Assembly: GCA_051294375.1 (NCBI GenBank)
Contig: CM119265.1
Span: forward strand, 778,089 to 842,088
Origin: Paraspadella gotoi
Lineage: Eukaryota > Animalia > Chaetognatha
Length of the DNA: 64,000 nucleotides
Reading direction: 5' to 3'
The notes beneath the pieces were generated by a model. The model did not search any database and was not told the DNA's origin. It worked only from the letters and a program-made list of their open reading frames with translations. Each line of letters begins with the position of its first letter. Positions within the stretch are counted from its first letter, which is position 1. Positions 5,501 through 45,671 of the stretch are shown one piece after another. Position numbers and translations under genes: made by a program.

Positions 5501-5622
5501 AGGAGGAAGAGGAAGATGTGGAGAAAGGAGGAGGAGCAGATGTTGGTGCAGATGTTGGTGCAGATGTTGCTGCAGATGTTGCTGCAGATGGAGACGAACC
5601 CGGACCGGCTTCAATGATCTGA
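1495..5622 (+). CDS. Ig-superfamily-like type I membrane receptor, paralog A (signal peptide, 4-Cys N-terminal domain, two Ig-like domains, TM, acidic tail)
   Basis: Phase-consistent exons 1495-1965, 2332-2458, 3153-3273, 3854-4145, 5003-5071 (GC donor), 5395-5622. Hydrophobic leader MHSRLWLLSLSSLLLLTSC. Ig-type motifs FHCAADDGKP..IKW and KVRCIAKNEVG. TM IMAGIIVAILLILLGCIIFIIGIACI. Clear homology to paralogs B and C (LPGxDxGQxLxxSC, DLPI...EVxLKxV, LQVRFKP, EAEVDG). Confidence 0.85.
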
Positions 5623-7464: not shown

Positions 7465-7588
7465 GATTAGAGATTGAAGAATTAATTTAGTTTTTAGGTT
7501 TATAGATAAGGTTGGTGATAAGGATTAACGGTTAGGGCATATAGTAGGGGAATATGGTTAGGGATTGGGTTAGAGTTAGGTATTAGGT

Positions 7589-8197
7589 TATCTTATCTTA
7601 TCCTATCAATGTCTTATCTTATCTTATCCAATCAACGTCTTATCTTATCCAACCAACGTCTTATCTTATCCAATCAACATCTTATCTTATCTTATCCTAT
7701 CCAATCAACGTCTTATCTTATCTTATCTTATCCAATCAATATCTTATCTTATCTTATCCTATCCAATCAACATCTTATCTTATCTTATCTTATCCTATCA
7801 ATGTCTTAACTTATCTTATCCAATCAACGTCTTATCTTATCTTATCTTACCCAATCAACGTCTTATCTAATCTTATCCTATCCAATCAACGTCTTATCTT
7901 ATCTTATCCTATCCAATCGACGTCTTATCTTATCTTATCCTATCCAATCAACATCTTATCTTATCTTATCTTATCCAATCAACGTCTTATCTTATCTTAT
8001 CTTATCCAATCAACGTCTTATCTTATCTTATCTTCTCCAATCAATGTCTTATCTTATCTTATCTTATCCAATCAACGTCCTATCTTATCTTATCCTATCC
8101 TATCAACATCTTATCTTATCTTATCCAATCAACGTCTTATCTTATCTTATCCAATCCAATCAACTTCTTATCTTATCTTATCCTATCCAATCAACGT
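7589..8197. repeat. Compound satellite (TCTTA)n interspersed with TCCAATCAACG
   Basis: Directly visible tandem array. Confidence 0.95.
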
Positions 8198-8472
8198 AAG
8201 CCAATCGTGTTTAAAGTTCAACAGATTGGAAGTCCAACTACAATCTACAAGTCAGGTGGTCGAGCTTTGCAATAATTGCAGGTTGATGTAGCAGAGTTCT
8301 GGTTTGGAGGTTGATGAGTTATAAATTTGCTCCATTTGATTATCTTCTCAACCAATTTCATCTAATCATCATCTCAACTAATCAACTCATTTAATCAACT
8401 CTGATAAATCGCTTGAAAACTTCGTCTACCAGATTCAGTTAGAGTTCAGCCGCTTTCCTTTATTTTTACAAA

Positions 8473-11003: not shown

Positions 11004-11837
11004 TCATTATTATAACTAAATGATTATATTATTGTGTCGTCATTGTATCATCAATATCTCTATTAACCATTAATAAAACTTATTTTTTCAGAAACCAAGA
11101 ATTTGGTGACAAAAAGAGAAAAGATTGAAAATCGAATTTTCTTCACTTCAACTCCGAAAATCATCGATGTTTATTGTAAAAGAATTTCGTGATATAGTGG
11201 CGGATGTTGTAAAACTAGTACCACCGACATATTATGTTTTAATATATTATATGTCACATCCTTAAATAAAAGGCTATTTTCGGCTCTTTCTGGAATTAAA
11301 ATATAGCGTCTTTGTTATTATGGAAGAGTGAAATGTCTATTAATTAAAACCAATTTTGTGTTTTGAATGTTAAGATTATCATCATTTTTTTTAATTCATT
11401 AGTATCGGCAATTGAACACACGTTTATTCCATTCCTATGGCACAACCAATACTCGGCAGGAGACACTGTTTTCAGGGATAAAAACACGTGGGCATTTTAT
11501 AAAAATGGATTTGCCAGAGGTGAAAACAAAAATTTATTTCAAAAAGTTGTTACAAATGTTCAATTGTTCATGTGATATAGAATAATATTTAAAACTATTG
11601 ATAAATCATTACATGCCAAGCTTTTGAAACCTTTAAAATTAGTATAGTTTATTTTATCCATGTTGCCAGGCGATAATTTTTGGATGGGTCTGGAGAAACT
11701 TCATCAGCTCACCAAATCCGGCCACTGGTATTTAGTGGCCAAGTTTAAATGGTGGAAAAAAGGAATAGATGCAACTCATAACTCTGAAGATGATCCAAAG
11801 AAAGGAGAGTGGGGAGTTGGCGTATGGCCCAAATTTA

Positions 11838-11932
<95 letters not shown>

Positions 11933-13051
11933 TATTTTATATATATATTATATTTCAATCCTATCACAATATCGTGTTTTGTAGTGAGTCCCAATCGTTT
12001 GGACGGCAGAATATTCCCTTAACCAGCCGTGATTTGCGGTCACGCTGGTTCAAGTGTAATGACACCGGTGATAACTTGCCCGTCACATTGGGTGGTCATT
12101 TCTGGTCCAAAGCCCGTCAGCTAGTCAGGTGCTTCATACCCTGGGTCGTGAGTATCATAGACTTCCCCTTCTTTGCCATATTTAATATTTCATAGTTTCA
12201 TAGTTGATAGTTTATCATTTCATCCGAGTCGCGGATCAGATTCCATTCTTGGTTCCGATTCCATCCACGATGTGATATTGCAAGAAAGAAAATATTATTT
12301 TTATTTAAGGTAAAGGACGAGAACGAAGCTTACCAATGGACTTTCGATCGACTTTTAATCGGACATAATTTTCACTTGAATCCCTCTTGTGATGTTTTTG
12401 GAAATGAGCGAAATATGAGGTTAGTGGAAAAGTTGGTTAAAGATGATTTCTGTCACATTTATCACTTTAACAATTATGGAACGGGCCCTGGGTTTGGAAA
12501 CAGGTTTGAGGGGTTGTTACGCCCCTCAAGGTGGTCCATAAGAGGGCTCTCGCTTTCTAAAGGGCAGACACATGGTTTTACTCAAAGAGCCAACGGGTCA
12601 TGACTGAGGGAATCCTGATTAGTTTTTGGGCGAACTTAAGCAGTGCCTGTTGCATGCCTCAGGATTGTGACCCACTCTACACTGCTTCCTGTGAAGGGAG
12701 GGGAACAATCTTTAACAAGTCTTGGGACCTGGACAGTGGACACAGCTTTGAAGATGCAAGACAGGAAAGGCAAACAAGAGCTAAGTGGGCCAAAACGAGT
12801 TTTTTAACCCATGCTACAGATTCACCACTAGAGATAATCCACATCAGATAAACGGAGGAAATTGCGCCGCTGATTTCAATTATCAAGTGGGATGGTGGTT
12901 CAACCGATGTTTTCACACTTTGATCAATTCGCCGGAGTTTGTACGAGTGCAGGAAGGAGATGGCGCTGACCCTGGATGCGTATCGGGAGATGTTACTTCA
13001 ACTCCGTCAGAAATGATGTTAGCTATTTTTCGGGAGAGGAATAATTCTTGA
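8473..13051 (+). CDS. Secreted fibrinogen-related (FReD) protein: signal peptide, coiled coil, fibrinogen C-terminal domain (ficolin/angiopoietin-like layout)
   Basis: Exons 8473-8530 (MKSFLFFIFLGIFSGIILG), 8685-8725, 9809-9865, 10509-10614 (KYLEEENKKLRIENLRLK), 11092-~11175, 11403-11519 (TWAFYKNGF), 11670-11839 (GDNFWMGLEKLHQLT), 12310-12419, 12820-13051 (FTTRDN...NCAADF..VGWWFNRC). GT-AG introns with matching phases. The 11175 donor is the least certain boundary. Confidence 0.88.
10013..10240. repeat. Intronic minisatellite, 5 copies of a ~45-bp unit
   Basis: Core AATTATTAAGGGGATGAGAAC..TCAGAG repeated five times. Confidence 0.9.
12477..12560 (+). repeat. Dispersed GC-richer repeat (second copy on the minus strand at ~39590-39670)
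   Basis: TGGAACGGGCCCTGGGTTTGGAAACAGGTTTGAGGGG..ACGCCCCTCAAGG aligns with the reverse complement of 39610-39669. Family unknown. Confidence 0.55.
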
Positions 13052-13389: not shown

Positions 13390-13949
13390 CTTGTAGAAAA
13401 ATCAACATGAAATCAAATTATGTATAATTAAAAAGTTGAATTCTAAAGAATCATTTAAAATGATACCATATTTACTTTCTTGTCATGTGATCATAATAGA
13501 GGTTAATAAAGACTTAATTTTTATCGAGCCAGGACAGGCTTCGCCTGGTCCTGGCTATGTATATGAGGTGAGATTACTGTTTCAATATTTTATTTCATTT
13601 ATTCTGACTAACATCTTCTACAATGCTCCTTTTTGAGTATTGTATATTTGGTTAAAATTTTTAAATATGTATCTTACATATGATATGATACAATTGTTAT
13701 TGCAATATCGTTTAAATTTTGTTTTTTGTAATGCTCTATTTTAATGTAGTTTTTATGATGATTGGTCCGATTTTAAATTTTTAACTGTGTACTTCTGATA
13801 TCGGGTCATATATGAATCTCATATTCGTTGAGATCTATTTTTATGTTATTATGATTCTAGCTCATGTAGACGCATAAAATAGAAGAATTTATTTGATGCC
13901 CTGTGAAGAAAATGCGACACTCTCATGTGACGCTTTCGGTACCGTATAT

Positions 13950-15010
13950 TTTTTCAACTTATATAATTTTTTTCATCTTGCATTAATTAATTTTTTCGAT
14001 AACTTGCATTAATTTTTAATTTGCATAATTTATTTAAATTGTATATATTTTTTCAGCTTGCATAATTTTTATCACTTTGCCATATTTTTTTCAGACTTGT
14101 AGTATATTTTGTTTTCGATTTTGCATTAATTTTTTTCAACTTGCATAATTTTTTTTTAATTTGCATAATTTTTAAATTGTATAATTTTTTTCAAACTTGC
14201 TAATTTTTTCAAACTTGTATAATTGTAATTTTTTAACCTTGCATAATTTTTTAATTTGCAATATTTTTTTTAAATTGCATATCATTTTTTCAACTTGCAT
14301 AATTTTTTTCAACTTGCTATAATTTTTTCAACTTGCTGATAATTTTTTCAACTTGTTATAGATTTTTTTAACTTGCATTAATTTTTCAACTTGCATAATT
14401 TTTTTAAACATTGCATAATTTTTCAAATTGCATAATTTTTTTCAACTTGTAAAATTTTTTTTTAACTTGCCATAATTTTTTTAATTTGCATAATTTTTTA
14501 AATTGCCATAAATTTTTTAAATTGCATAATTTTTCAACTTGCATAATTTTTTTCAAACTTGCATAATTTTTTAAACTTGTATAATTTTTTTAACTTGCAT
14601 AATTTTTTCAATTTTTGCATAATTTTTTTAAACTTGCATAATTTTTTCAATTTGCATAATTTTTTCAACTTTGCATTATTTTTTAACTTGCATAATTTTT
14701 TAACTTACATAGATTTTTTCAACTTGCATATTTTTTTTTAACTTGCATTAATTTTTTTTCAACTTGCATAATTTTTTCAACTTGCATAATTTTTTTCACT
14801 TGCATAATTTTTCAACTGCATAATTTTTTTCAACTTGTAATTAATTTTTTTCAACTTGCATAATTTTTTTAACGATTGCCATGAATTTTTGTTAACTTGC
14901 ATAAATTTTTTCAATTTGCATAATTTTTTAAACTTGCATAATTTTTTTCAAATTTTAAATTTTTAAACTTGCATAATTTTTCAACTTGCATAATTTTTTC
15001 AACTGCAAAT
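13950..15010. repeat. Satellite of ~18-20-bp unit AACTTGCATAATTTTTT(C)
   Basis: Directly visible tandem array ending at an assembly gap. The same unit occurs inside HINE copies (34580-34700, 44560-44610). Confidence 0.95.
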
Positions 15011-18700: not shown

Positions 18701-21700
18701 GGATGGCTAGAAGAAATATCGACGACAAATTGAGCTCCCACCACCACGTTCAAAAGGAGAAGATGGTCAAATGAGGTTAATGCTGACCGATTTATTGGAA
18801 ACGTTAGCCGCTCAAGATGGTATACATAGTCAATCAAACGGTGAAAAGATCCACATAGTGAATGGGACGACCTCAGAGATGGCGTCGAGGTAAAGGCCAA
18901 CCCAGGAAAATGGGGCTATGCCTTCCCCTAATAACAACCGAGGCAAAATCAAACTTGGTCTAGAGACTGACAACGCGCGTCGACCGGTCCAAGCTGATCT
19001 TAAGCGGAGAGAAACCACACTCAGAAAGGTGAGAAAGGAGATATCCCGGCCAACAACGCATTGTTCATCACAAACCCACCGAAGAATGAACTAAGAAGCG
19101 GTAAGAAAGAGCTGGCCAAGCCCGAAAAGAAACATAGATGCAAGAGGAAAAGAGGCTTTTTAAAATCCTTTCAGCGATGTTGATCCTTCCCTAGCCGATA
19201 AAGCTCCACTAGTATGGGAAATAGTGGGGAATTTCAAGAGATGTTTTCGGGCGAAAGCATCAATGACGCAAGGAACGATTTTTTAAATTACAAGGTCGAC
19301 CTTGGATTTAGCTGAGGAGGGGGATCTCCCCAAACCACGTTTTGTTAAATAAGGACCAGTCAGAAGGAGCTTTAAACGTTACCTCGAGTGTATAGAGAAT
19401 GCCGGAATCGTTTCCGAAGCAGAAATGAAGCATTCGAACGCCTTTCTAAATATAAGAACCAGGCCCACATTAGCGGTAGGGACAAGATGAAATGTCCGAT
19501 GAAACATTTGCAAAACAGTGGAGAATGATATGCGACTTATCGGCTGTCAATAACAATATCTCCACTTACGCAACGGAACGCACAAACAATAACTTCGATC
19601 CTTGAACAATATAAACCTCATGAACTCCAATGGCTCACTGGTATATTAGCTGCTTCCATCAGGTAAACCTCACGGAAAGATGCAAGCGCGTCCCCACCTT
19701 CGCCGGAGCTGGTCATAACTGGTGGATGAACAAGCTCCGCAATGGGAGGTGTAAATAGTGTAAATGTTTGCGCAAGCTATTCTCTGATGAGATTTTCAAA
19801 AAAGATCTTGGAAAAGCGTAAAGAGTTTCTTAGGTATACGTGGCATGACTTAATCCTTACCGCCAATATCGCGGAAGACATGGCCGAAAGATTACGGTGA
19901 GCTGCTTAAAATGCAGAGATGAAAATGTGTGCTCAAATGGACGAAGAGTGTACTACTTGGAAAGAGGATTTATCAAGTCCTCGGCTTCAGCATTTCCAAC
20001 AGGCAAGCTCCTCCCCCAAAGGGAAAAACATGCGAGGCTGCGGAAATCAAACTCAAAAACATAAAGACTTCCAGAAAGACCTCGAGGGCTATGTTGGCCT
20101 CACTAAACTATTACAGATGTTTCACACGATCAGATTTTCGTATATAGGCAGCAACCTTTACATGCTCTCACATTGGCTGGACAAAAGGAATTTCAAAATT
20201 AACTGAAAGCCACAAAGAAATGCTCCAGCTTTCTCATTGAAGGAAATCAAACCTCACCGGGGCGTCAATTTTCTCATGATAAAGAATCAGGCAAGGCTCT
20301 ATAGCAGGATTTATGCTGATGCAAGCTCCACAGCAATGGGCGGGCTGATAACAGCCACAGCTGATGGAATAGAGGTACCCTCTTTCCTTTCACTCGAAAT
20401 CCTTCCCCGAAGAATATCGAATCAAAGCACATTAAACATCCTCGAGACGCTGGCATTCAACATGATGGTGAGGCAGTACAAGGCTACCGTGCGGCCGAAG
20501 AGTCACCTTGGTAGGACTCTCATACTTCAAGATCATGGACCTCCCAACACGTATAAGCAGCAATTACTTCACCACAAACGTCCTCCGATGGATAACGGAG
20601 ATAAAACAGGAGTGCAACCAAGAGGAAGTTGTGCTGTGAAGAGCGAAGACAAGCCCAGCCGACCTTCCTCACACCGCTATTGGCTTGCAACAAGGTCAAT
20701 CACACCCTTGGTATCTACTCCCTTCTTCCCCGCTGGTTTTGACGTAGAGGCAATTACGAACGCTGGATATGCCGAAACCGCAGCTGGGGACAGCGAGACG
20801 CCAACACACCGTTGACCTAATCACGTGGGCCACGCCCAACACTCACCTTGATGGCGGGCAAATTCTCAGAACAGGAAACTAAAGTCTTCAAGAACTAGAT
20901 TTTTTGAGTTCACAAGACAAAAGCTTTGAAAAAGAAAAGAAATATGGAGAACTTTAACGGAAAAACCAAAACGAAAGATGCAGATACTTCATTCGGCACA
21001 TATATCAGCAAAAGACCTGGACCTCGGTCATCCAGAGCTCGAGATTGCTGGCCGAGATGACCGGGCATCAACATCGTATGCTTGACGAAGACTAAACACA
21101 AGGCCAAACTGGTTGCAAGTATGAACGGCCATTACCGGGCTAAACCGAGGCGGACAGAAACGATAAAGGTTTTTCCAGAAACCATCACAGGCCAGGTCAG
21201 CTTAGTTGGTGATTCTGAAAGAATCAAATCAATTACGCCCAATAAAGCCGCGTGACTTGAAGGTCATCGAACTAGGAAATCTAAAACCTAGCCCGAAAAC
21301 AGAGGAAGACGCAAAGAAGGGCAAAAGAGCAGAATACGAAACACATTAGTGAAGCTCCGACGGACTTATTAAACATACTGCATCAAACCAAATGGAAACA
21401 GTGATATGTCAACGAAGGCACCTTCTGATTTATTACATATAAATTTCGGAGACGCCTACGACGCATCCTCCCATAACAAGGCGGAAATGACGAAAACGAT
21501 GTGGTAGAAAAAGTCCCATAAACTGGCAGGAGCAGAAGAGGAAGCATTCATCGACAGCGCCATGGAAGGCGGATGTTGACGTTACTCTCACGAGAACTTG
21601 AAGAGGAATTGCAGAATCCAGACATAAAAATTTTTTTTCGTTAATCCCAATGGCACGGGAAGTCAAAGATTGGCAACAAGCTAATGATTCATTCAAAAAA

Positions 21701-23377
21701 GTCATAAACAAAATAAAAGAAGGCACAAGGAAGAAGCGAAAGACGTGCTCAGTAAAACGAAAGAAAAGGAAAAAACGGCAGAAAGATATCTCTTCCAACT
21801 GCCTTGAGGATCTAGAAGTACCCCGGAACAATCCTCATCTCAGGGGTTACAAAAGGCGACACATGCCCACCCACAGATTCGTTGGTCCCTCCCGAGAAGG
21901 CAGAAGTAATACGACGAAACGTCTACAACAAACCATTTTGGGCACCCTGGGCGAGACAGAACAGCCTTCATACACGGTCAATTACATCTCGCGCCTGGAC
22001 TAGCGACTGGCAGCGGCTAAAAGTGGTAAGAAATGCGAAAATTGTGCAATGGCAACCGACAACAAAAAAACAATGAAACACACGTCGGCATCAAATCTCG
22101 CTATTTCACCGTGGGATCTCTATGCATCGATGTGATGCCCTCCCAAGCCGTCTCCAGGCTACAAATATTGCCCTCATCGCTTCTGACAATGCACTCCGCA
22201 TATACCTGGGCAATCCACTCAAACGCGCGATGCGACAGTTTTGATAAAAAGCATTAGATGAAAAATATTTTCCTTCTATCACGGATCTTATCTTGAGTCA
22301 ACTTCGACGGGCGCACTCAACTCATGGCTCCACATGAAATCGATCCTAAATCTCCTAGATTTGTTGGCCGAAAAGTCTTAGTGAAGAAAAACAGGCAAAA
22401 GGGCCGAAAGGGATATCGCAGGATCAGGCAAGCCTACGGCAAAGGCCATAAAGTAGTAAAGATCAACCAAATCATGGCTTGAAGTACATACCGACAACTA
22501 ATGTTACTCTTAAAGTGCTACGCCATAGTCGGCTGAAAAACCGACATGTCTCCTCATGAGATCCATTCGGACATAAGGCCAAGGTTGTCGAAATGCTGAC
22601 GACTACACAAAAAGATATCACTCGTCGACTATGTGTAGAAACAGAGCAGACAACGCGAAACAGCTGAAAAACTACTGAGCAGGCAAAACCTCTTCAGACA
22701 AAGTTTCCTCGACAGTAATCCTTATAGAAAGCCAAAAAGATAAAGTGGAGACCTCGTATTGGCAAGACGGGAATCTCGTAACCAGCGCGCAACCCTCGCT
22801 GAAAACAAGGTGAAACGCATCTACACGGGCCCGCGCACAAAGTCATTCAGAAAGATGAAAAATCATTACGTTATCCCCTGCATAAAATGGTCAAAGGTCA
22901 AGTACATAGACGTCGTTAAAAAACTACCCTGCGCAAAACGAGGACTCTAATCGAATAATATTAATAGGTCTCACCAGTAATACTCAACTAGTTGTAACAA
23001 CAAAATAATTGATAGACAAAAACAACAATTGTATATCTCTCCTTCTTATCACGTAGCCTATCATCGTATCACTAACGCCATTTATTTATTTTTTCTCTCT
23101 CGTTATCTTCATTATCTCGTTATCCTCGTTATCTTCTTAGTCGCCTCAACACTTGATTTTTAGAACAAAAGCAGAACAATTTCTCTAACTCTAACATACA
23201 AAAAAAAAAAGAATTCAAAAAAGAAAACGACGCGCAACGAAACAAAAACAAAAGCCACGACGAAGAGAGCAGAATGATTTCCTCTAACTGGCTTCAAACA
23301 AAAAAAGAACGACGCGCACAAAAAAAACAAAAGCCACGACGAAGAAAGCAGTTCCAAAGCTGGCCCAAAACTGGCTT

Positions 23378-25476: not shown

Positions 25477-26065
25477 CACCCAAAGGACGAGGGACAAAAA
25501 CTGTTTGCGACTCTTATTTCTTGTAACTGACATAAGCCGACTTCTGTAAAACGGTACCCACATACCTCAATATTTTTTCCCTTTATTATAAAAGTTTTAA
25601 AAATAATAAGTAAAAATAATAAGTAAAATTTAAAAAAAGAAACTTTTCTGTCGGTCGGTCTGTCTGTCCGTCGATCTGTCTCAGTTAAAAATGCTTAAAA
25701 TTCGCCTATATAAGGGACTGCTAGCGCCGCCTTCAGGAACTCAATAAACTATATTGATTTAAAGACGGAATTTCGAAGCAGTGCGTATCATAAATACATA
25801 TGCTAAAATAGTTATTGTAGTCATGTCATGTCATGTGATCAAATGTGCGCAACACATTGGATAAACCGATCTCGTTTTTAAAATCCTCGTCATTACCATC
25901 ATAATCTTAAGTTTCCAAAGAAACTTATTCTTTATTTATGAACTGATTTCTTCTGTCCAATATTTACTTTTCATTAAATAAAAATCCTTTTCAGTTAAAT
26001 TTGAACAAAACAAAAAAATTCAATCTTAGTCTTTGGCCAACGACGCTCGTGAACAAATAATAAAA

Positions 26066-29000
26066 ATGCGTTTGTCTCAAATCTTTGTCTGTTTATTGTG
26101 GGCGTGTCTCCTGAGCATCGCATCGTCGAAAGACGTCGTCGTCCCTTTTCAAGGTGAAGCGACCTCACCTGTGCCATTTCTGCGGAAAATCGACAACAAC
26201 AACAACGAAACAGATACTTACTCCGTTTTCCCAACCGTCTCTTACAAGACCAACTTCGGGGGATCTAATTATGACGTGGTCATATTCAGCGCAAATCCTG
26301 ATCCCAACCTCCAAGGCGACAAAGTTGATTGCGGAAAGAATTACACGATTAATGAAAAGAATATCTGCTCTGGAATGACCAGGCAGATCAAACCGTCAAA
26401 TGTGATAGAAGTAGTTGGAGTAAAATGGATCAATTTCAATTTAGACTTGTCCTTCACGAAGCTAAATCCACGCTGTATTGCAAAACGCCAGAGGGATTCG
26501 TGGCACCCCCTGGCGGAGAATCTCTCACCTTCACAGTGATTGACCTGAATCTGCAAAGTTGGTGGTGAAGAATGGGGCTGATCGATTGCCTGGCGTAGAT
26601 GAAGGACAAGAGTTAAAGGCCGCTTGCTTGCTGACAAAAATCTCAAGGCAATGGGGACGTGCCTCTCAAAATACAAATGTCTACAGTTCAAAGTAACATT
26701 GTATAAGATCATTAATCTAGAGAAACCCAAGTTTTTGATTTTTAAAAATTATTAGATTTTTAAATAATATTAGCTTCTATAAAATATGCATTAAATATGC
26801 AATATACTTTGTAGTATGAAAATTTGCAAAATTACTTGTTTTACTGTTTTCTATTTTTATAATATTAATGTTCAAGGCTTTAATATTTAATCTATGAAAT
26901 TGGTACAACCAATATAAAAATTATCCATTCATTTAATAAATAGGCTATCTTGCCTCTGACTTCACTCTTACAAGATAATGACATAGCAGGTCCCTGCAAG
27001 CTTTCAATCAAGACTCTTTCACAGTCTCGTTTATTCACTCCCAGAGTTCCTGGCTTCCCTATCAATGAAGTGGTATAATGTTTCAAAGAATGTTTCAATT
27101 GTATGAAAAGACCGGGGAATACTTTATTGTACTCCGCCCAGCAGATACGTCTATGGTGGACGAAAATCCACCAACCGTTCATCAGCGGCCATTGGTGCTG
27201 GAGGCAAGTCATTCGCCTCTCAACCCAAAGGTCCGGGGTTCTAGCCCGGTGGTCGCCTATCAGTTAAGAGGGACGGGGCGCTTAACCCGCCTGTAACATG
27301 GTGTTACAGCCTGATCCAAAGCTCAGGGACTGCTTATATTGAACGGTTCTGTCACTAACGCATAACAATAATTACTGTCTCTTCATTGGTGAGCCCGACT
27401 TCCGAACACAACAGCAACAACACTTTCAGGCGACAGGCCTCAACCTGGCGATGCACTTTCCGCCAACAACTCATCAGGCGACAAGCCTCAACTTGGTGAC
27501 GCACTTTCCACCAACAACAATTCACTGAAGAGACGCAACAGATTTCTCCCTACGGGAGAGGGGGATGTATGGTGGACAAAAATCTACCAACCGTTCATCA
27601 GCGGCCATTGGTGCCGGAGGCAAGTCATTCGCCTCCCAACCCAAAGGTCCGGGGTTTTAGCCCGGTGGTCGCCTAGCAGTTAAGAGGGACGGGGCGCTTA
27701 ACCCGCCTGTAACATGGTGTTATAGCCTGATCCGAAGCTCAGGGGCTGCTTATATTGAACAGTTCTGTCACTAACACACAACAATAATTACTGTCTCTTC
27801 ACGTCTTCTCCTTCCCTCAGCGCTGTAGTAGTGTACTGGGCTAACGCTTCATCTCCTAACCCAATTGTCTTGGGTTCTAACCCTGGCCGGAATTGTTCTT
27901 GCAAAGAGAGTGACGGGCCAGTTAAACCACCAGTAGCAAGCCTACCGCCAGATCCAAAGTTCCGGAAAGCAAAGCAACCAGACCCACTAGGCACACTAAG
28001 TGTAAGGGCTCTCCACACTCACAGAGAGGCATTGCAACCCTATCTCCACTCGGACACTTCATGCATATTGTTTTTGTAAATTTTTACTTAGAATTAAATA
28101 TGATATTTCATTATTGGAGGGGGAGTTCAGTGTTGTCTTCTGGAAATAGAGAGAGCATCTATAGATACAACTATACAACAATTATCTTTTACTTTCAGGC
28201 TAAATTTCCTGTTAATTGTACGATTTTAAAAGAATCGTCTAAGGGTAAATGAATTGTTTTTTTATAATAACATGATTGAATAAATAAAATATATAAAATA
28301 AAACATTTATGTTAACGCTGATGAAAGCTTGCAAGCAAAGCCGAAACATGTCTGTTTTATGCTAATAAAATCTAATCGTTGTCACACTCCAAATCAAACT
28401 TTCTTTAACTACTTCAAACAACGAAAAAGAAAGGATTTATATCACAATATAAATTTCATATATTCAAAAGATTCATATTACAAATGGGAAAAAAGAGTAT
28501 TATAAGTTGATTTCTTTACTTAAAAACTGATTAAACATTCCTTTTAGATGCAACTGTCTTTTATGATCTGCCCATTGCGAGATCCTCTTCCAGTGAGGTA
28601 CAGCTTAAAGGGGTCATCCTCGATAAAAAATTTCGCAATCTCAAATGTATTGTTGGGCCAGAAGAAAAGTAAGTTGTAAGTGTATTATAATTTCCTTCAT
28701 TACAAAGATAATTTTCTTCTATATTAAGAGTTTTATTTTTTTTATTAAGACCTTGGAAAGTCATCGAGTCCAACAAGCTACAAGTTCGCTACAAACCGTA
28801 CAATCTGAAATCAAATCGGGACAACCCGTTAAAGATTTCATCTGCTGACGGAAATGCAAAGAATGAATCATTCACCTGCTCTGCATTTTTGGGAAATCCA
28901 ACTACGATGAATTGGACTGTGGAGGCAGAAGTTGATGGGAAGCTGAGGCCGGACATCGTTCGGATGATCGGGGAGAAAATAGGCAGAGTGATGTTTGATG

Positions 29001-29589
29001 TCACTGTGGAAAAAGATACAAAGGTAACATGTTAAAGGATAAAAACAATATGATGATAAGATGAGGTTCATTGTCACAGTGGACGAGAATTTGAAAGTAA
29101 GTCTAACTACAAAGTTTTATGATAAGCAATTTAAGCACATAATCTTAAAAATGTCTTAATCCCAAAAAAATTTCATTTTAAAAATATAATCCAGGTACGT
29201 TGTACCGCCCAAAACGTCGTGGGAATTTCACAACTAAATATTTCGGTGGAATTTAGAAAAAATGTAAGTTTCTATCAATCAATAAATCAATCAATCAATC
29301 TATGAATATAATTATCAATTCTATTCAGATAAGCCAAAATAATTTGTAAGAAAACGCTTTAATAAAACAAGTGACAATGCAAATAATTATTTCATAAAAT
29401 CTCTTCTTCTCAACATTATCTCAGGAAACCCTGGTGAACCCAACACCTAATCCATTGAAACCTTGGATTCCAACCATCATCGCTATAATCGTCGCTGTTC
29501 ACGTCTTCATCGGTCTTCTTATTCTCTTGGTTCTTTGTTGTCTTCTCAGTGAAGCCAATAACAGAGAGAAGGAATCTTTAATTAACTGA
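26066..29589 (+). CDS. Ig-superfamily-like type I membrane receptor, paralog B (first coding exon frameshifted: pseudogene or consensus error)
   Basis: Exons 26066-26692, 28548-28668, 28750-29023, 29195-29263, 29425-29589. Exons 2-5 are intact and in phase. Exon 1 has homologous peptides (FSANPDP..KVDC, STLYCKTPEGF, GADRLPGVDEGQEL) in shifting frames. Confidence 0.8.
26896..27103 (+). repeat. Dispersed repeat (other copies ~54016-54272 +, ~37413-37618 -, partial ~36480-36548 -)
   Basis: Shared GAAATTGGTACAACCAATATAAAAATTAT...CTTACAAGATAATGACATAGCAGGTC...TTCACTCCCAGAG. Confidence 0.8.
27152..27801 (+). mobile_element. TRIM-like non-autonomous LTR element, family 1 copy 1, with tRNA-like module in each LTR
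   Basis: LTRs 27152-27385 and 27568-27801 (234 bp each, TA...CA). PBS TGGTGAGCCCGAC 27387-27399. PPT GGGAGAGGGGGA 27554-27565. 4-bp TSD CGTC (27148-27151 / 27802-27805). 182-bp non-coding interior with a ~48-bp tandem duplication. Confidence 0.93.
27185..27257 (+). promoter_or_regulatory. tRNA-derived (Gly-CCC-like) module with A/B-box-like Pol III promoter inside the LTR; not a functional tRNA
   Basis: GCGGCCA(27185-27191)/TGGTCGC(27250-27256) acceptor-like stem at tRNA spacing. TGGTGCTGGAGG A-box-like. CCGGG-GTTCTAG-CCCGG T-arm/B-box-like. TTCGCCTCCCA in other copies resembles the tRNA-Gly(CCC) anticodon region. Anticodon stem does not pair. Confidence 0.75.
28314..28356 (+). ncRNA. Minimal type I hammerhead ribozyme motif (Penelope-like-element style)
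   Basis: AACG-CTGATGA-AA-GCTT(GCAAGCA)AAGC-C-GAAA-CAT-GTC-TGTT: both conserved core boxes, stem II, palindromic ACATGT stem III, 4-bp stem I, AATAAA just downstream. Confidence 0.7.
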
Positions 29590-30560: not shown

Positions 30561-31216
30561 AATGGTGGACTAAAAACAACCCACCGTTCATCAGCGGCCA
30601 TTGGTGCCGGAGGCAAGTCATTCGCCTCCCAACCCAAAGGTCCCGGGTTCTAGCCCGGTGGTCGCCTTGCAGTTTAGAGGGACGGGGCGCTTAAACCGCC
30701 TGTAACTCGGTGTTACAGCCTGATCCGAAGCTCAGGGACTGCTTATATTGAACAGTTCTGTCATTATCATTTATCAATAATCACTGTCTCTTCATTGGTG
30801 AGCCCGACTTCTGAACACAACAGCAACAACAACACTTTCAGGCGACATGCCTCAACCTGGCGATGCACTTCCTGCCCACAACACATCAGGCGACATGCCT
30901 CAACTTGGTGACGAAATTTCCACCAACAACAACAATTCACTGAAGAGACGCAACAGACTTCTCCCTACGAGAGGGGGGGATGTATTGTGGACTAAAATCC
31001 ACCAACCGTTCATCAGCGGCCATTGGTGCCGGAGGCAAGTCATTTGCCTCCCAACCCAAAGGTCCGGGGTTCTAGCCCGGTGGTCGCCTAGCAGTTTAGA
31101 GGGACGGGGCGCTTAACCCACCTGTAACTCGGTGTTACAGCCTGATCCGAAGCTCAGGGACTGCTTATATTGAACGGTTCTGTCATTATCATATTTCAAT
31201 AATCACTGTCTCTTCA
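30561..31216 (+). mobile_element. TRIM-like element, family 1 copy 2
   Basis: LTRs ~30561-30794 and 30983-31216. PBS TGGTGAGCCCGAC 30796-30808. PPT ~30969-30980. Collinear with 27152-27801. No clean TSD (CTCT vs CCTT). Confidence 0.9.
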
Positions 31217-33394: not shown

Positions 33395-33993
33395 TGACAT
33401 TCCAAGGACCCGGTCACATCGTCACTGCCTTTTGGGCTGTAGTCCGTCGCTACAGGTGGGTAAGACCCAAGTCCTTTGGGTTGGAAGGAGCTCGTGCTAT
33501 CTCCGGCGCCATAGGTGCTGCTGATTCTCGGATGAGTAGCGGGGTATAAAATACTACCGCTTCACATCCCCCCCCTAGGCATCACACACCCGCGCAAGTG
33601 TGATGGCGATGATGCACGCGTTGTGCCCGAGCACTCGAGGAGGGGCTGCCTATTTCTGCTCCCGTCTTCACACACAATGGTCGAGGGCAGAAATGTGTTA
33701 ACATGCCAGGGACAGAGGTGTATTAACGTGCCAGCGTGTTTGTGTGGGCTCACCAATGTGGAAAATGATGCCGCGAGCAGTTCACCGTCCATTGCACTCA
33801 AGGTCCCAAACTATGGATCGGGCTGTAGTCAGTAACTTCAGGTGGGTGAGATGCCCGGTCCCGCTTTTACTTGTGTGAATCAGTAAGGCGCGAACCCGAG
33901 ACCTTTGGGTTGGGAGGAGCTCATGCTACCTGCGGCGCCATAGGTGCTGCTGATTCTTGGAAGAGTAGCAGGGTATGAAATACTACCGCTACA
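33395..33993 (-). mobile_element. TRIM-like element, family 2 (related tRNA-like LTR)
   Basis: 5' LTR 33993-33757 (TG...CA). PBS TGGTGAGCCC 33755-33746. G8A PPT 33575-33567. 3' LTR from 33564, internally deleted and diverging at its 3' end. Shares CTCCCAACCCAAAGGTC..GGGTTC and CCCACCTG...TACAGCC with family 1. Confidence 0.8.
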
Positions 33994-34138
33994 TCTTCAC
34001 AATTTATTATTTAAAATGTTAATGTTTGTAAATTTAACAAACTCAACTATCTCTCTTTCACTCTCCCTCACTCTTTTGTACTTATTCTTAACTTGTCCTT
34101 AACCTCCCACTGTTTTTTTATTAATTTTTTGTTGGAAA

Positions 34139-35243: not shown

Positions 35244-37623
35244 AATAATCTATGATGACTTCATTTTTAAAGGCAAAAATATTTCACCAAGTCACGGCTT
35301 AACATTTTGAAATAAATTAAATACTGCAATAAGCAAATGATAATTTGGATTCGATTTCAAATCTATACTGAACAAACAAGAGACAACGTTTTAATCAAGC
35401 TTTTTTCTTTCTAAGAATAATTCTATATTTTGAAAAAAGAGCTGTATCTAAAAGGTGTGTTTAGCAAAGGTAATAGACAAAATTGTTTTACAAATTTGTT
35501 CAACCATTCATTTCAATCATAAGGTTTTATAAATTAAAATATAATGATGACTATTTGAAATAGAAGATGGAATGGTGATGTTGGCAGATTGAATAATATT
35601 GCTAAAGAGCGTTAGAACAGAGAAAGAATAAGATATAAATTTATATATATATATAAATTTTTCGGACAACTATTTCTACTTAGATTTGCTGTTTCTGTTT
35701 GTACATATTGATTTAGTTTTTGCTTGCCATTAGAAACACAATAAAAAAGCTAAAAAATAATGATTTATTTGAAATTCATCAGCAGTATAAATATATATAA
35801 ATAGAATGGAAAATAAAGCCTTAAAAATATTTTAGGTTTTTTAAATTAAGGTGTTTAAGCTGTTGTTCAGGTATAATAAAGTTAAATCGATTCATTATAT
35901 TTTTTATAATTAAAGTATGTATGTTAAAGATGTTTAAAAGTTTCAAGACAGAAACTTGTAAGTAAAACTATCTTAATTAATGGTCACTGTCATCAAATAG
36001 CATTTCCGTCATATTTTTAAAAAAATCATATTATTTTTTATTTTTATAAATTTTATTATTTCCCAAAAAAATTTTTGGAGCTGGAGTTGGACCTTTTTTT
36101 GCCCGCTCCGACTCCAGCTCCAGCTCCGGCCAAGATAAAATCTCAGCTCCAGCTCCAGCTCCCGCTCCGGTAGGAAAAGAAATTCAGCTCCAGCTCCAGC
36201 TCCGGCCAAATATGCCAGCTCCGGCAGCTCCGACTCCAGCTCCCGCTCCAGCTCCACATCCCTGCTTTCTATGTAACTTGGCTCCCTTTTTTAAAAATCT
36301 TTCCACTATTAAAAAGTCGTGATAAAAATCTTGAAGAACAGGTAAAGAAAATTTATTTAATTTAAAAACGGGAATGTCTTTTGGCTCATTCTACAGGTGC
36401 CGTCTTAAAAAGAGAGAGAAAGAGAGAGGAAGAGAGAGAGAGAGTCAAGATAAAAAAAAGGCTTCTTTTGTGCTTTTATCATCAAGTAGCTTATTTATTA
36501 AATAAATGGATAATTTTATATTGGTTATATCAATTTTATAAAATTTCGCTCCTTGTACTTTGATGCTAGTGCGAAGTACAAAATAGTATTCCCCATTCTA
36601 AATATTATAATATATAATATATATATAATATATATATATAATATATAATATTATATTATATGTTGAAATATTATACCTGGAGAAAGCGATGCCTTTTTAT
36701 TCGCGTATAATTGTTTAGTTTCGTTTAGATCGATAGAATCATTTGTTTCCGTTGAATATCTGAATTTACTCTTCCCCGCGATCAGCTGTTATTAAAGCTA
36801 ACGAACGAGCGTGTTTCAGTTTTATCTTTCACAAGTCTTTTACTCTCAATTCAAACACGTGTGTAAAAATGAAAAGGAAAATACTTTAAATAATGTTTTG
36901 TACTACTTTACTGCCAATGTTTTATTCTCTATTCTGGAACCCAAATTGAAGGTTAGTTTACATTGGATTTATATTGAATTGTACTTAGGTTATATATGTT
37001 ACTTATAAGTTTAAGGTTTAAAGTTTATACTAATTTAGCATTGTCTATTTTTTGTAGTTTTAACACACTTGCCTCTCCTTGAACCCCACTCCTCCTTCTT
37101 GCCTACCTGTCCTTCTACATTGCTCACCATGAATATTTGTACCTGAGATTGGAAATTGTATTATCTCAAAATGTGGTTACTATTTCTGCTTTATTACATG
37201 GTTCTAAGAATATAAGGTTATAGTTAAGGTGTTTTACATGTTAGAACTGTTTGGTTTCCAAAAATACTTATTTGAGAGCAGTTGAACACGGATTTGAATT
37301 CAATAATTAATTAGGGCACAAATTAGGGCACTCTAGAAGAATAGAGATGAAACTTAGATTTGTTTTATTTGCGATAATCTCAGATTATCTAGGTCGCGCG
37401 TTAAGAAGCGCTTCAATACCGCTTCATGGATAGTGAAGCCAGGTACCCTGGGAGTGAATAAACGAGACGGTGAGAGAGTCTTGATTAAAAGATTTAAGGG
37501 ACTTGCTATATCATTATCTTGTAAGTGTGATGGAGGCCTTAAACCACTAAAGCCAGGTGCAAGATAGCTTATTTATTAAATGAATGGATAATTTTTATAT
37601 TGGTTGTTTTAATTTTATATACT

Positions 37624-38146
37624 TGAAGAGACAGTAATAATTGTTATGAGTTAGTGACAGAACCGTTCAATATAAGCAGTCCCTGAGCTTTGGATCAGGC
37701 TGTAACACCGTGCTAAAGGCGGGTTAAGCGCCCCGTCCCTCTTAACTGCTAGGTGACCACCGGGCTAGAACCTCGGACCTTTGGTTCTTTATTGTTTCAT
37801 CCGTGGAGCTAAAAATCTTTTTCAATGTTTGTTTTTAAATAAATAATATCAAAACAATATATTATAACCTACTCAATTTAATGTAAAATTTAATTGCGCC
37901 GCGAGTACTCACGAAGCAACTCTATAAGTCACTGTTTGGTTGGTCTGTCGGTCGGTCTGTGGTTATATCTCGCCTATACTTGCTCATTTGTTAAGACAGA
38001 AAAAACCTCAAATCTAAGGGACTGCTAGCACCGCCTTCAGAAAATCCGAAAACATGGATAAAGAATAAAAGATAGGTTGGGAGGCGAATGACTTGCCCCC
38101 TGCACTAATTTCCGCTGAAGAACGGTTGGTTTATTTTAGTCCACCA
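37624..38146 (-). mobile_element. Family-1 solo LTR split by a ~290-bp insertion (37786-38074)
   Basis: 37624-37785 and 38075-38146 join to give a complete reverse-complement family-1 LTR. Confidence 0.85.
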
Positions 38147-38491
38147 CTGTTTATTATAAAAATTCTTTCATTCTCTCTTTTATCTTTCTTGTCAGACAAG
38201 TTGAGGCCAAAATCTTCTCTCTTCTAAAACTGGAATCACACATCAGAAAAACGTGAAGCAAAGAAAAAAACCTGTTAAGAGTGGCGCGGTTGAAAACTTT
38301 TTATGTGGAGTTGTCCGACGGATTTTAATGAAAAGTAATAAAATGAATACTAAATGTTTGAAAAAAAACTAATAATTGTTAGTAATTAAACATCAAACTT
38401 ATATGATTTCTTTCATTTCTCCCTGTACCGTTCTCTAGAAAAAATAATGAACGACAATAACAACAGTCAAGCAAAGTGATAGATTCAAAAC

Positions 38492-41056
38492 ATGAATATC
38501 CAAGCATTTTCCCTCTGCCTTTGTTGGGCTCTGCTTGCAACGACCTGCTTGGCACGAGACTTCATCCTTTCGAACGGGAGCGCAATCGAATTTGACTGTC
38601 CTCGTCTCCGCAGAATCACAGACAATACGACCGTGTCTCCAGCGAACTACACTGTCTTTCCCACGATCGCTTACAAGACGTTCATCAATGGGTCCATTTA
38701 TGATATTGACGTCTTCTCTGCCAACCCTGATCCCGATTTAGAGAATGAAAAGGTGGACTGTGCCAACATTTCATCCACTCTTGCCGACTTCTGCAACGAC
38801 ATGGCAAAGAAAATCGTCCTTCAAAAATGGAAGACTATCGATGATGTTGAATGGGTTGATCTTCATTTCATTGCCTCCTACAAAGACGGCGGCTCGACCA
38901 TTTACTGCAAGACGCCAGCAGGATTTGCATCACCGCCCAAGGCCGGTGATGAAATTAGAATCACGATTTACGATTCCAATTCGATGGAATTTAATGTGAT
39001 GGACGGAGCTGATAAATTGCCAGGCGTTGATGAAGGACAACTGCTCAATGCCAGTTGTGGATTGAATATCAGCAAAGGAGACGGGAAATTGCCACTGGCC
39101 ATTCAATTCTCCACAACGAAAAGTAGGAAAATGTGTTTAAATGGGAATGTGAATCCGTAGCATTTCATTTTGGAAACAAATTGAGAATTAAAGAATATTT
39201 AAAAGCAAGACAGAAGATAACTATCACTCATGTTTTCTTTTTAAATCTTTTTTTTCCTGGCACAGAACCAAAGGAGTTCTTAGATCTTCCGATCATAAAT
39301 GTTTCACCAAGTGAGGTTCAGCTCAAGGATGTTGTTCTTAATAAAACTTTTTACAAACTCAAGTGCGTCTTTGGCGAAACACAAAGGTAAACTGAGTTTG
39401 ACAGATGGGAAATGTTATGAGGCTACTTTAGCTTTTTAAACGAGTAGATAAATTAATCATTAATTCATTTGTTAGTCAATATCATATAGTCGGACATTGC
39501 TATAAGTTTAGCACGCCTATAAGCATGACTCATTCGGTTGGGATTATTCGGTTGAGTAATGCCATCAGCTCATAGCTATTAAGCATCAGGAAGAGTGAGG
39601 ACGGCCGTAAACGGCCTTGGGGGCGTGGAAAACCCTTGAGCCTGGTTCCAAATCCAGGAACCTGTTCCACGGCTGCGAGCACTCTTCAGCCCAATTATTG
39701 CCTTATCTACAGGATTTTTTAATCAATTTTTAGTTACAATACTTTATTCTCCAAAGTTAGTTAACTTTTACATACTAAATCCAGTTGACAGCTATTTGAT
39801 TCAATGTCACTGATCAATTTCAACAATATAATTTACTTAATCCCCTTTCAGTCCATTGAAAGTCATCGAGAGTAAAAATCTACAAGTCCGGTTCAAACCG
39901 TACAACATGGTCATGCCTCATAGAAACCCAATAAAGCTTTTCTCTGCTGATGGAAATGCAATAAATAAAACTATTTTCTGCGTTACAAATGTGGGAAATC
40001 CAGCTGCATTAAATTGGACTGTGGAGGCAGAAGTTGATGGGAAGCTGAGGCCTGATATCATTCACAACGTGAATCCGAAAATCGTTCAGAGGTCTGGGAG
40101 AAAAATTGCCACCGTGAATTTTGTTGTAACTGTGGATGAAGATACAAAGGTAACATAAAAAAAAATGAGTTGAATTCATTTGGAAAAAAATAATATGATA
40201 ATAATAAAATGATAACAATGAAAACAAAACAAGATTAGATAGCTAATGAAAGGGACATATGCATGAACTTCTTAAAAAACTAGACAGCTGGCCTAATTTT
40301 GCTAGTACTTATAGATAAATTATCAGTATGAATAAATGAAAAAACTTGAGTGAAGTATTTTGGAGATTTCATTAATCTGTCATTAATCTGTCAAAATATT
40401 ATCTAATTTACTTATCGGACATACATGTATTATTCAAGGCATTATAAAAATTACAACTAAAAACAATATTTTGATGCATTTTTTTAGGTACTCTGCTCTG
40501 CTAAAAATGATGTTGGGGCAACAGAACTGGAAATTTCAATTCAAATGACAAAAAAAGTATGTTTGTATGAATCAATTATCCTCTTTTTAGTTGCGCCTCG
40601 GTCTGTCGGTTAAGCGCCCCGTTCCTCTGAACTGCTAGGCGACCACCGAGCTCCAATGCTGGACCTTTGAGTTGGGAGTTGAATGACTTGCCTCCTGCAC
40701 CAATGATGAATGGTTGGTGGATTTTAGTCCACCATAACCGTAACTTTAAAGTTTAAACCAAAATTTTTATTCATTAAAATTTTGCATTTAAACTATTTCG
40801 ACTATGATATAAAAATTGGGCACTATGTCATCTTAAAAGCCATTTTTATGCATTTATAACAATTTTCTTTCTTTACTGAATCTTATCTCAGGAAACCCCG
40901 GTGAACCCAACACCTGATCCATTGAAACCTTGGATTCCAACCATCGTCTCTATAATCGTCGCAGTTCACGTCTTCATCGGTCTTCTTATTCTCTTGGTTC
41001 TGTGTTGTTTCATCCGTGATGCTAAAAATAGAGAGAAGGAATCTTTACTAAAGTGA
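38492..41056 (+). CDS. Ig-superfamily-like type I membrane receptor, paralog C (intact)
   Basis: Exons 38492-39122, 39266-39386, 39852-40149, 40488-40556, 40892-41056, all GT-AG and in phase. Signal peptide, many N-x-S/T sites, IFCVTNVGNP..LNW and VLCSAKNDVG motifs, TM, tail ending REKESLLK. Confidence 0.9.
40608..40736 (-). mobile_element. Family-1 LTR fragment (5' half) in the last intron of paralog C
   Basis: Reverse complement of the LTR 5' half; confirms the TATGG 5' terminus. Confidence 0.8.
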
Positions 41057-41213
41057 TTCAGGAATTTTATGAGAGATTTGGTGAAAGTACTTTACGTAAT
41101 GAAAATATTATGATAAATTGTAAACTATTGTGCTTCTTTTCTTTTTGGATGTTTGTTTTGAAATAAATAATATCAGAACAGTATATTATAACCTATGCAA
41201 TTTAATGTAATTT

Positions 41214-41330
41214 TTAGTTGCGCCACGAGTACTCACAAAGCAATTCTATAAGTTCGGTCGGTCTGACGGTCGGTCTGTCGGTCGGTCTGTCTGTCAGTCA
41301 ATCTGTCCCATTTATGTTAAAAATGCTCAT
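41214..41330 (+). mobile_element. Second HINE-like family (also ~37893-37990, partial ~40588 and ~25650)
   Basis: TTTTAGTTGCGCC.CGAGTACTCAC.AAGCAA.TCTATAAG followed by (GGTC/TGTC)n. Confidence 0.55.
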
Positions 41331-42143
41331 AACTTGAAAAAACCTCTAATCTAAGGGACTGCTAACACCGCCTTCAGAAAATCCGAAAACATGGATAAAG
41401 AATAAAAGATGGAATTCCGATGCAGTGCATGTCATAAATACAAATACAATATAAAGACGTTCGTTATGTACATAAATTTCCTAGTCATGAAGTCATGTGA
41501 TCACATTGAAATACATGTGAAAATAAAGTCACTGCGGCGCAACACATTGGATGGACCAATCTTGTTTATTTATTTCTTGGCAAATAGTTGATGAATCAGG
41601 GAACATTAATTATGCATTTATTTCAAGAATATATATATATATATATATCGCCTAAAAATAGAACTGAAAATTTGAAGTCTCACTACATTCTAAAGTTTAT
41701 TTATAAGTCGACGTTTACATTAATTCTTAGAAACTAGATATACTGATCTTCTGAAAGTAATTGTATTGTATTGTATTTATTCAGAAAGCACCATAGTGCA
41801 CCATAGTAATTTACAATGTAATCATATTCTGATGGTTAGTGAGTTTTTATTTAAATACGTATTCTATTTAAGTAACTACCGTCGACGAATTGGTAATCTT
41901 TTGTTTAAATCAAGTTGCCTCCGATTTTTTACTTTTGTCCGCGACGCCTCTATCAGCAAATAGACGAAATATGCAGATCGGCCGCTTTTAACAACAAATG
42001 AACAAGGTTTGAGTTAGATATACAAAAAAAAGCTTTGGGTTAACCTTACTTTATTGGTTTGTTACTTGTGAAAACTCACGAAATATGATGACTGACTAAA
42101 TTGAAAATACAAGAGACAGAGAGATAGAGAGAAACACACAGAT

Positions 42144-45529: not shown

Positions 45530-45612
45530 GATCAGCAGTACTTATGGCGCCCGCCACGTTAGCTGAGCTATTCTCTACCCAAAGGACCCGGGTTCGCGCC
45601 CCTGTTCGCGGC
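45530..45612 (+). repeat. Isolated family-2-like tRNA module followed by a T-run
   Basis: ATCAGCAGTACTTATGGCGCC...ACCCAAAGGACCCGGGTTCGCGCC matches the family-2 LTR core; oligo-T at 45617-45626. Confidence 0.6.
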
Positions 45613-45671
45613 ATTCCTTTTTTTTACATTAGTGAACCCACATTATATCTAAAAATTTTTTTTTTTGTAAA

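Follow-up and report, generated by a model that had tools for sequence, protein, structure and literature searches.

A Helenus-like miniature retrotransposon of the chaetognath Paraspadella gotoi carries a twister-type fold in both long terminal repeats and may spread as a retrozyme

Introduction

The closest described systems to the element treated here, a 650-bp non-coding insertion in the genome of the chaetognath Paraspadella gotoi, are the Helenus (TRIMp3) elements, TRIMs, or terminal-repeat retrotransposons in miniature, that have a tRNA-like sequence in both long terminal repeats (LTRs), plus a primer-binding site (PBS) together with a polypurine tract (PPT) (Kojima 2024, PMC10886601). 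They are reported with a 4-bp target site duplication (TSD) in animals of six phyla, their mobilisation by Gypsy elements is inferred, and transcription by RNA polymerase III (Pol III) is itself unvalidated for the published Helenus elements (PMC10886601). The TRIM groups with a 5S-type segment are Cassandra and Ajax (PMC10886601). LTR retrozymes have been described from plants alone and with no ribozyme but the hammerhead, and metazoan retrozymes are stated to lack LTR, PBS, and PPT, in the available passages of PMC7761336, PMC4918200, and PMC7229834.

The window that we analysed is a stretch of 64,000 nucleotides (assembly GCA_051294375.1, contig CM119265.1, positions 778,089 to 842,088, forward strand), and all coordinates refer to it. 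The insertion, copy 1 of what we call family A, lies at 27152-27801 and consists of two 234-bp LTRs around a 182-nt interior. The original prediction had counted Helenus among the 5S-derived TRIMs and had considered the layout undescribed in animals. Helenus is the tRNA-type TRIM, and its published description is precisely the kind of catalogued architecture that the prediction itself had named as speaking against it. The tRNA-in-LTR layout is therefore already known, while the twister-bearing form is new, and the unusual part is a twister-type fold downstream of the tRNA-like head that had been overlooked. A literature search that did not reach Repbase, Dfam, subscription papers, or bioRxiv supplements returned no paper that places a twister within an LTR or a TRIM. 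We interpret the element as a non-coding TRIM of Helenus layout with a twister-type LTR fold which, on balance, probably spreads as a retrozyme via a 416-nt circle and a Gypsy helper.

Results

A circularly permuted (P5-order) fold is present in both LTRs of copy 1, directly behind the tRNA-like head and on the strand of the PBS and PPT. Nucleotides are named by the twister numbering. In the 5' LTR (27152-27385, plus strand) the fold spans 27260-27333 on the plus strand and consists, in order, of a P2 strand, GA-CGG (27272-27276), a self-complementary 6-nt linker (27277-27282), U^AA with a predicted cut at 27283/27284, the second P2 strand, the T2 dinucleotide (27289-27290), the hairpin P3 (27291-27309), and the stem P4 (27310-27327) with an 8-nt loop (27315-27322). 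This loop is able to pair with CGG (pseudoknot T1) and with the dinucleotide (pseudoknot T2). The 3' LTR (27568-27801, plus strand) has its head at 27601-27672, the fold at 27676-27749, and the predicted cut at 27699/27700. Element order and the core letters GA, UAA, and UCC-AA match the twister RF02684, the definition of a twister being taken from passages of PMC5408937, PMC8501958, and PMC6765202.

For comparison, phage loci with a twister pattern were drawn from viral contigs (IMG/VR) in sets of 46 and 62, of which 16/20 and 20/20 tested loci, respectively, matched RF02684. Phage loci with a 3-nt P2 strand scored above the RF02684 gathering score in 18 of 20 tests, and 65 of 71 pattern matches with such a strand pair fully, so that the 3-nt spacing of P2 appears natural in P5 twisters. 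Within the phage material, type-P5 twisters with a 3-bp P2 (loci L047-L107) outnumber those with a 4-bp P2 (62 vs 46 loci), and one contig often contains several of them; a review gives P2 as four pairs.

A covariance model was built from phage sequences only (58 of 91 P5 twister sequences, P1 linkers up to 22 nt). Its 11 matches in the 64 kb are headed by five family A LTR segments at ranks 1-5, with 14.2-20.3 bits and rough E values of 0.0025-0.076, and the next match has an E of 1.7. A descriptor that includes both pseudoknots, written with the sequence already in view, fits the 3' LTR without mismatch (the sole such match in the window), the 5' LTR and a solo LTR of family A with one mismatch, and the LTR of a related family, C, with two. 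At 0, 1, and 2 mismatches it was found in 0, 2, and 4 of 20,000 LTR shuffles and gave 0, 1, and 12 matches in 150 shuffles of the window. As a control, it matched 97/107 phage twister-pattern loci and 0/3 tRNA loci.

The fold is also traced by covariation. Seven segments from three families have 91% of their cells paired, and sliding the structure by 1-3 columns lowers this to 23-47%. Both sides change in 6 of 23 pairs, distributed over P2, P3, P4, the hexamer, and pseudoknot T2; T2 covaries between G-C and A-U. Contigs of four public runs were compared with the locus (21,880 placed from run X1), where the summed contig depth is not a copy number. T1 pairs completely in 3/7 window segments, as it does in most of the depth of families A and C. 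The window copy of family C has A-C mismatches, all of CpG type, at 27920, 27932, 27950, and 27956, and the pairing letter at these sites accounts for 89, 91, 92, and 67% of X1 depth; runs X2 and X5 show the same trend toward the pairing letter, and run X10 had no contigs on family C. According to the available passages of PMC5408937, P1 is dispensable for twister cleavage. Taken together, the LTR fold is very likely of twister ancestry and more likely than not active in cleavage.

Other ribozymes were considered for the element. Inspection by eye showed no conserved GAAA partner for a hammerhead at the interior CTGAAGA, which was therefore discarded; Rfam gave no hammerhead match on the LTR, and HDV-like and hairpin folds were weighed by eye and dropped. 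A metagenome scan for the twister variant gave no match.

The tRNA-like head of the 5' LTR (27185-27256, plus strand) comprises an acceptor-like stem (27185-27191/27250-27256), an A-box-like motif (27193-27204), and a B-box-like GGTTC at 27237. The tRNA-shaped segment of the original prediction holds up in its 7-bp acceptor-like stem, which forms with pair probabilities of 0.97-1.0 in folding, and fares less well in database and model searches. ARAGORN found 0 tRNA genes and Rfam gave no tRNA match for the head at E<=10. With a covariance model of our own, trained on 24 tRNAs of phages and E. coli, the four heads reached 10.7-14.2 bits (E 0.11-1.0) and took ranks 2, 3, 4, and 6 among 12 matches, below one chance match. 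The B-box-like motif departs from the tRNA consensus; four related families share GGTTC as well as the beginning of the A-box-like motif. The likeness to tRNA is thus weak and the shape only suggestive; we regard the head as a candidate Pol III promoter, with transcription probably starting near 27185. T runs are scarce on the sense strand, which is in keeping with Pol III yet uninformative (probability of no run 0.285 in shuffles).

The remaining architecture of copy 1 agrees with what had been predicted, with LTRs identical at 222/234 positions, a PBS, a PPT, and the duplicated 4-mer CGTC outside the LTRs as left (27148-27151) and right (27802-27805) TSD. The PBS (27387-27399, plus strand) is complementary at 12/13 positions to the 3' end of tRNA-Trp in the available Fig. 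S2 of Kojima (PMC10886601), and the PPT (27554-27565, plus strand) has 12 purines. The interior contains two direct repeats of ~49 nt, each forming two small hairpins (27417-27513, plus strand), a candidate packaging signal. Between the two repeats the hairpin loops are kept and the stems differ by compensating pairs.

The LTR ends, TA...CA, were set by pile-ups of loose contig ends. Contigs of the runs diverge exactly at 27152/27568 and 27385/27801, the same positions in all four runs, with 88+33 junction contigs at the left and 173+42 at the right LTR end in run X1. Their flanks are AT-rich with an ATAT-like consensus and have no simple-repeat tail. These contigs represent many separate insertions. 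The loose ends and the TSD ruled out TG (27150 or 27154) as the beginning of the LTR in favour of TA. Uninterrupted family C contigs cross the insertion site of copy 1 with a single 4-mer (loose-end consensus), which supports the TSD of this copy. A family-specific scan of metagenomes gave no match.

The predicted further copies of family A are all present. Copy 2 (30561-31216, plus strand) has LTRs at 30561-30794 and 30983-31216 that are identical at 221/234 positions; it has no intact TSD (CTCT or GCTC vs CCTT), so that, of the two full copies, only copy 1 has an intact 4-bp duplication. The solo LTR (37624-38148, minus strand), now measured to 38148, is split by a 290-bp insert at 37785-38074, and a decayed fragment of a 5' LTR lies at 40608-40736 (minus strand). 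The insert is a repeat that is 81% alike to a relative at 41140-41410.

Related families were located within the window by a profile of the tRNA-like head. Family B (33430-34001, minus strand) has a 5' LTR that ends in CA at 33757, the same PBS start as family A (33755-33746), a PPT at 33576-33567, and a 3' LTR from TG at 33566 with an internal deletion; its twister-type fold is decayed at core positions. Family C is the LTR into which copy 1 inserted (27125-28061, plus strand, as ~27125-27151 and 27806-28061, the left end being approximate). It has its own tRNA-like head and twister-type fold, with GA-CGG at 27912 and a predicted cut at 27923/27924, and uninterrupted contigs end at CA 28061. 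Family D (45530-45618, plus strand) is an isolated tRNA-like head with a T run after it.

One of three paralogous genes flanks copy 1 with coding stretches on either side (26030-26539 and 28712-29035), on the same strand. The three genes, the others at 1468-1971, 3822-4175, and 5391-5622 and at 38483-39160 and 39841-40158, encode secreted or single-pass proteins with exons that are 31-56% identical and belong to no Pfam family. A high-copy repeat (26893-27113, 37416-37619, 54011-54276, 36483-36540) adjoins two family A insertions, and other copies of it extend beyond 27113 into a TTAA-containing end; we take it to be Kolobok-like. A decayed coding-like stretch at 19600-22300 has an RNase H-like motif and no Pfam match, and presumably resembles DIRS-type elements. 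Moreover, Pfam gave a weak fibrinogen C-like exon fragment at 11648-12022 (E 0.026), and tandem arrays occur at 7571-8259, 13945-15000, and 61149-61690 with periods of ~31, 18-19, and 22 nt.

Discussion

Numerous observations weigh against an active twister in these LTRs. The Rfam twister models gave no match on the LTR at E<=10, while phage controls matched. The G-C pair that closes L4 is essentially invariant in twisters (in the available passages of PMC5408937) and is A-U in 7/7 segments here. P2 consists of two direct pairs plus a third across a bulge, and the same review, in those passages, warns that an altered P2 length may disturb the active site. The P1 linker has 6 nt vs at least 9 in 113 phage matches. 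Alignments to the phage model mis-register P1 and P2 and draw their scores mostly from P4 and L4, the descriptor was written post hoc, and the covariation comes from three families that are related to one another. In nested folding, P2 loses to a rival hairpin (probability 0.94-0.99; -25.0 vs -16.8 kcal/mol, with pseudoknots not scored), which is weak in family C when judged by eye, and the hexamer duplex receives a probability of 0. Decay is apparent as well: the middle pair of T1 is broken in 4/7 window segments, family B has no cleavage-site A, and each LTR of copy 2 has one broken twister pair. In the four full LTRs, the twister region is not more conserved than the remainder of the LTR (9/76 columns variable, vs 5/73 in the head). 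Turning to the wider interpretation, the tRNA origin of the head appears to lack statistical support in our own model, and no helper element was found within the window, where Pfam searches of 13 of its 71 frames gave no reverse transcriptase and no integrase. Because of the missing Rfam match, the A-U pair closing L4, the bulged P2, the 6-nt P1, the rival hairpin, and the broken copies, we call the fold twister-type and not a canonical member of the twisters.

These departures could mean that the element is an ordinary Helenus TRIM, in which the segment was captured and survives as a relic, or forms a structure without catalysis that serves packaging, stability, or termination, and a linear Pol III transcript undergoes normal strand transfer. 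The failure of the Rfam models, the changes at the L4-closing pair, P2, and P1, the favoured hairpin, and the decayed core of family B all fit this explanation, as does the fact that most Helenus LTRs in the available supplement parts (1, 5, and 7 of 11) have no such module (PMC10886601). What makes it rather unlikely in our view is that families A and C keep the core GA, UAA, and UCC-AA while the helices, the pseudoknot included, change in a compensatory manner; the retention of core letters and compensating pairs is not what one would expect of a dead relic.

The twister might, on the other hand, be active in a transcript of different origin, made by Pol II read-through or from another promoter, with the head as a structural relic. 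Weak tRNA scores, a B-box-like motif off the tRNA consensus, and the location of copy 1, flanked on both sides by coding stretches of a same-strand host gene, would suit this, and read-through has been proposed for retrozymes (available passages of PMC7761336). We consider it improbable given that four families retain both GGTTC and the A-box-like start, as Kojima reports for Helenus (PMC10886601). Two adjacent SINE (short interspersed element) or ribozyme-SINE copies that mimic LTRs have already been largely refuted and are hardly credible. Heads with a tRNA likeness are typical of SINEs, and family D consists of such a head alone, with a T run behind it. Against this stand a PBS and PPT that adjoin the repeats, a 4-bp TSD, sharp TA...CA ends without a tail in hundreds of junction contigs, and a second family with the same PBS/PPT layout. 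LTR-type integration, as originally predicted, is borne out by these ends, and mobilisation of the TRIM by a Gypsy helper is still most likely, the same inference having been drawn for Helenus (PMC10886601).

In the retrozyme route that we favour, Pol III would initiate near 27185 from the tRNA-like head, and the twister would cut at 27283/27284 and 27699/27700. Since both cuts fall at the same position of the LTR, the released 416-nt unit (27284-27699, plus strand) would have no terminal repeat for strand transfer, and circularisation would be required. Ligation by an RtcB-type ligase would convert the unit into a circular RNA in which one whole LTR is rebuilt; a tRNA, most likely tRNA-Trp, may then serve as primer at the PBS, and a reverse transcriptase travelling round the circle could produce two LTRs. 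Finally, a Gypsy integrase would insert the product at AT-rich sites with a 4-bp duplication. Circularisation and reverse transcription round the circle constitute the published retrozyme model (available passages of PMC4918200), and RtcB ligation and dimer-dependent minimal hammerheads have been shown for animal non-LTR retrozymes (available passages of PMC7229834).

P1, reduced to a hexamer that is its own complement, suggests how the cuts might be made: each LTR motif could furnish P1 for the other, and the two may need to pair in order to cut, like minimal hammerheads. The family A linker forms a duplex of -9.7 kcal/mol with its flanks, and in most family C depth the linker is also self-complementary with a different sequence. 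Such dimer-type cutting is the least certain sub-step. The minimum-energy fold of the full transcript swaps P3 and P5 strands between the LTRs and does so without the hexamer duplex, and therefore a monomeric mini-twister without P1 is equally possible. The more far-reaching proposal of an animal LTR retrozyme superfamily, which combines a tRNA-derived Pol III promoter with an active permuted twister that cuts only when the LTR copies pair, is tentative, and we hold it to be doubtful.

If an active twister does reside in both LTRs of a high-copy animal element, the circular-RNA route of LTR retrotransposition would be extended, the twister would gain a defined job, and the use of a Pol III transcript without a terminal repeat as a template would be explained. 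Cutting by paired LTRs, if true, would excise exactly one unit and shield the single-twister circle from being cut again, which would represent a natural dimer-dependent twister.

The element shares much with the plant LTR retrozymes (Cervera et al. 2016, PMC4918200), which in the available passages are likewise non-coding, possess one ribozyme per LTR, a PBS, a PPT, and a 4-bp TSD, depend on a Gypsy helper, and use a unit-length RNA without R repeat. LTRs, PBS, PPT, TSD, and the absence of an open reading frame all recur here, with a twister-type fold in place of the hammerhead. The plant elements differ, in those same passages, by type III hammerheads, a tRNA-Met PBS, circles of ~600-800 nt, and the lack of a mentioned tRNA-like internal promoter. 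Twister motifs also occur in animal retrotransposons, namely Schistosoma Perere-3 (PMC8501958) and RTE (PMC7761336), and their P3 stem sequence is similar; in the available passages, however, these twisters are of P1 order, and each autonomous non-LTR element has a single one at its 5' end. Compared to the type-P5 twister RF02684, element order, GA-NGG, UAA, the T2 dinucleotide, P4 with its 8-nt loop, and both pseudoknots are in common, whereas the 6-nt P1, the A-U pair for the conserved G-C, the bulged P2, and a signal below Rfam detection set our fold apart. The hallmarks of tRNA-derived SINEs (simple-repeat tail, variable TSD, no PBS or PPT) are replaced by a sharp CA end, a PBS, and a PPT. 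Cassandra and Ajax also contain an LTR segment derived from a small RNA, but it is 5S-derived and no ribozyme is reported for them (PMC10886601); a 12-nt match to Ajax LTRs was dismissed as expected by chance.

The greatest likeness is to Helenus, with two LTRs, a tRNA-like segment, PBS, PPT, 4-bp TSD, no coding capacity, and a length below 1.3 kb. LTRs that start with TA are also found in Helenus-3_MeDo and Helenus-3_TheEle, and the closest relatives, Helenus-2_SyJa and Helenus-2_SyUm from gall wasps, have a tRNA-Trp-type PBS in common with family A, as far as the available parts of the supplement go. A string search with six family-specific 9-10-mers gave no hit in the supplement (a control term was found in 82 places, and line breaks can hide matches), and by this test family A is not a listed Helenus family. 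The differences are a head placed within the 5' third of the LTR and the twister-type fold behind it. Neither 'twister' nor, outside a reference, 'hammerhead' occurs in the main text of the Helenus paper (PMC10886601). In the available part of its Data S1, inspection by eye of the LTRs Helenus-2_SyJa-LTR and Helenus-2_SyUm-LTR shows the core of a type III hammerhead, its loops complementary, just behind the head. If our interpretation is true, the chaetognath element and these hammerhead-like wasp Helenus would together point to a Pol III head with an interchangeable ribozyme as a recurring design of LTRs.

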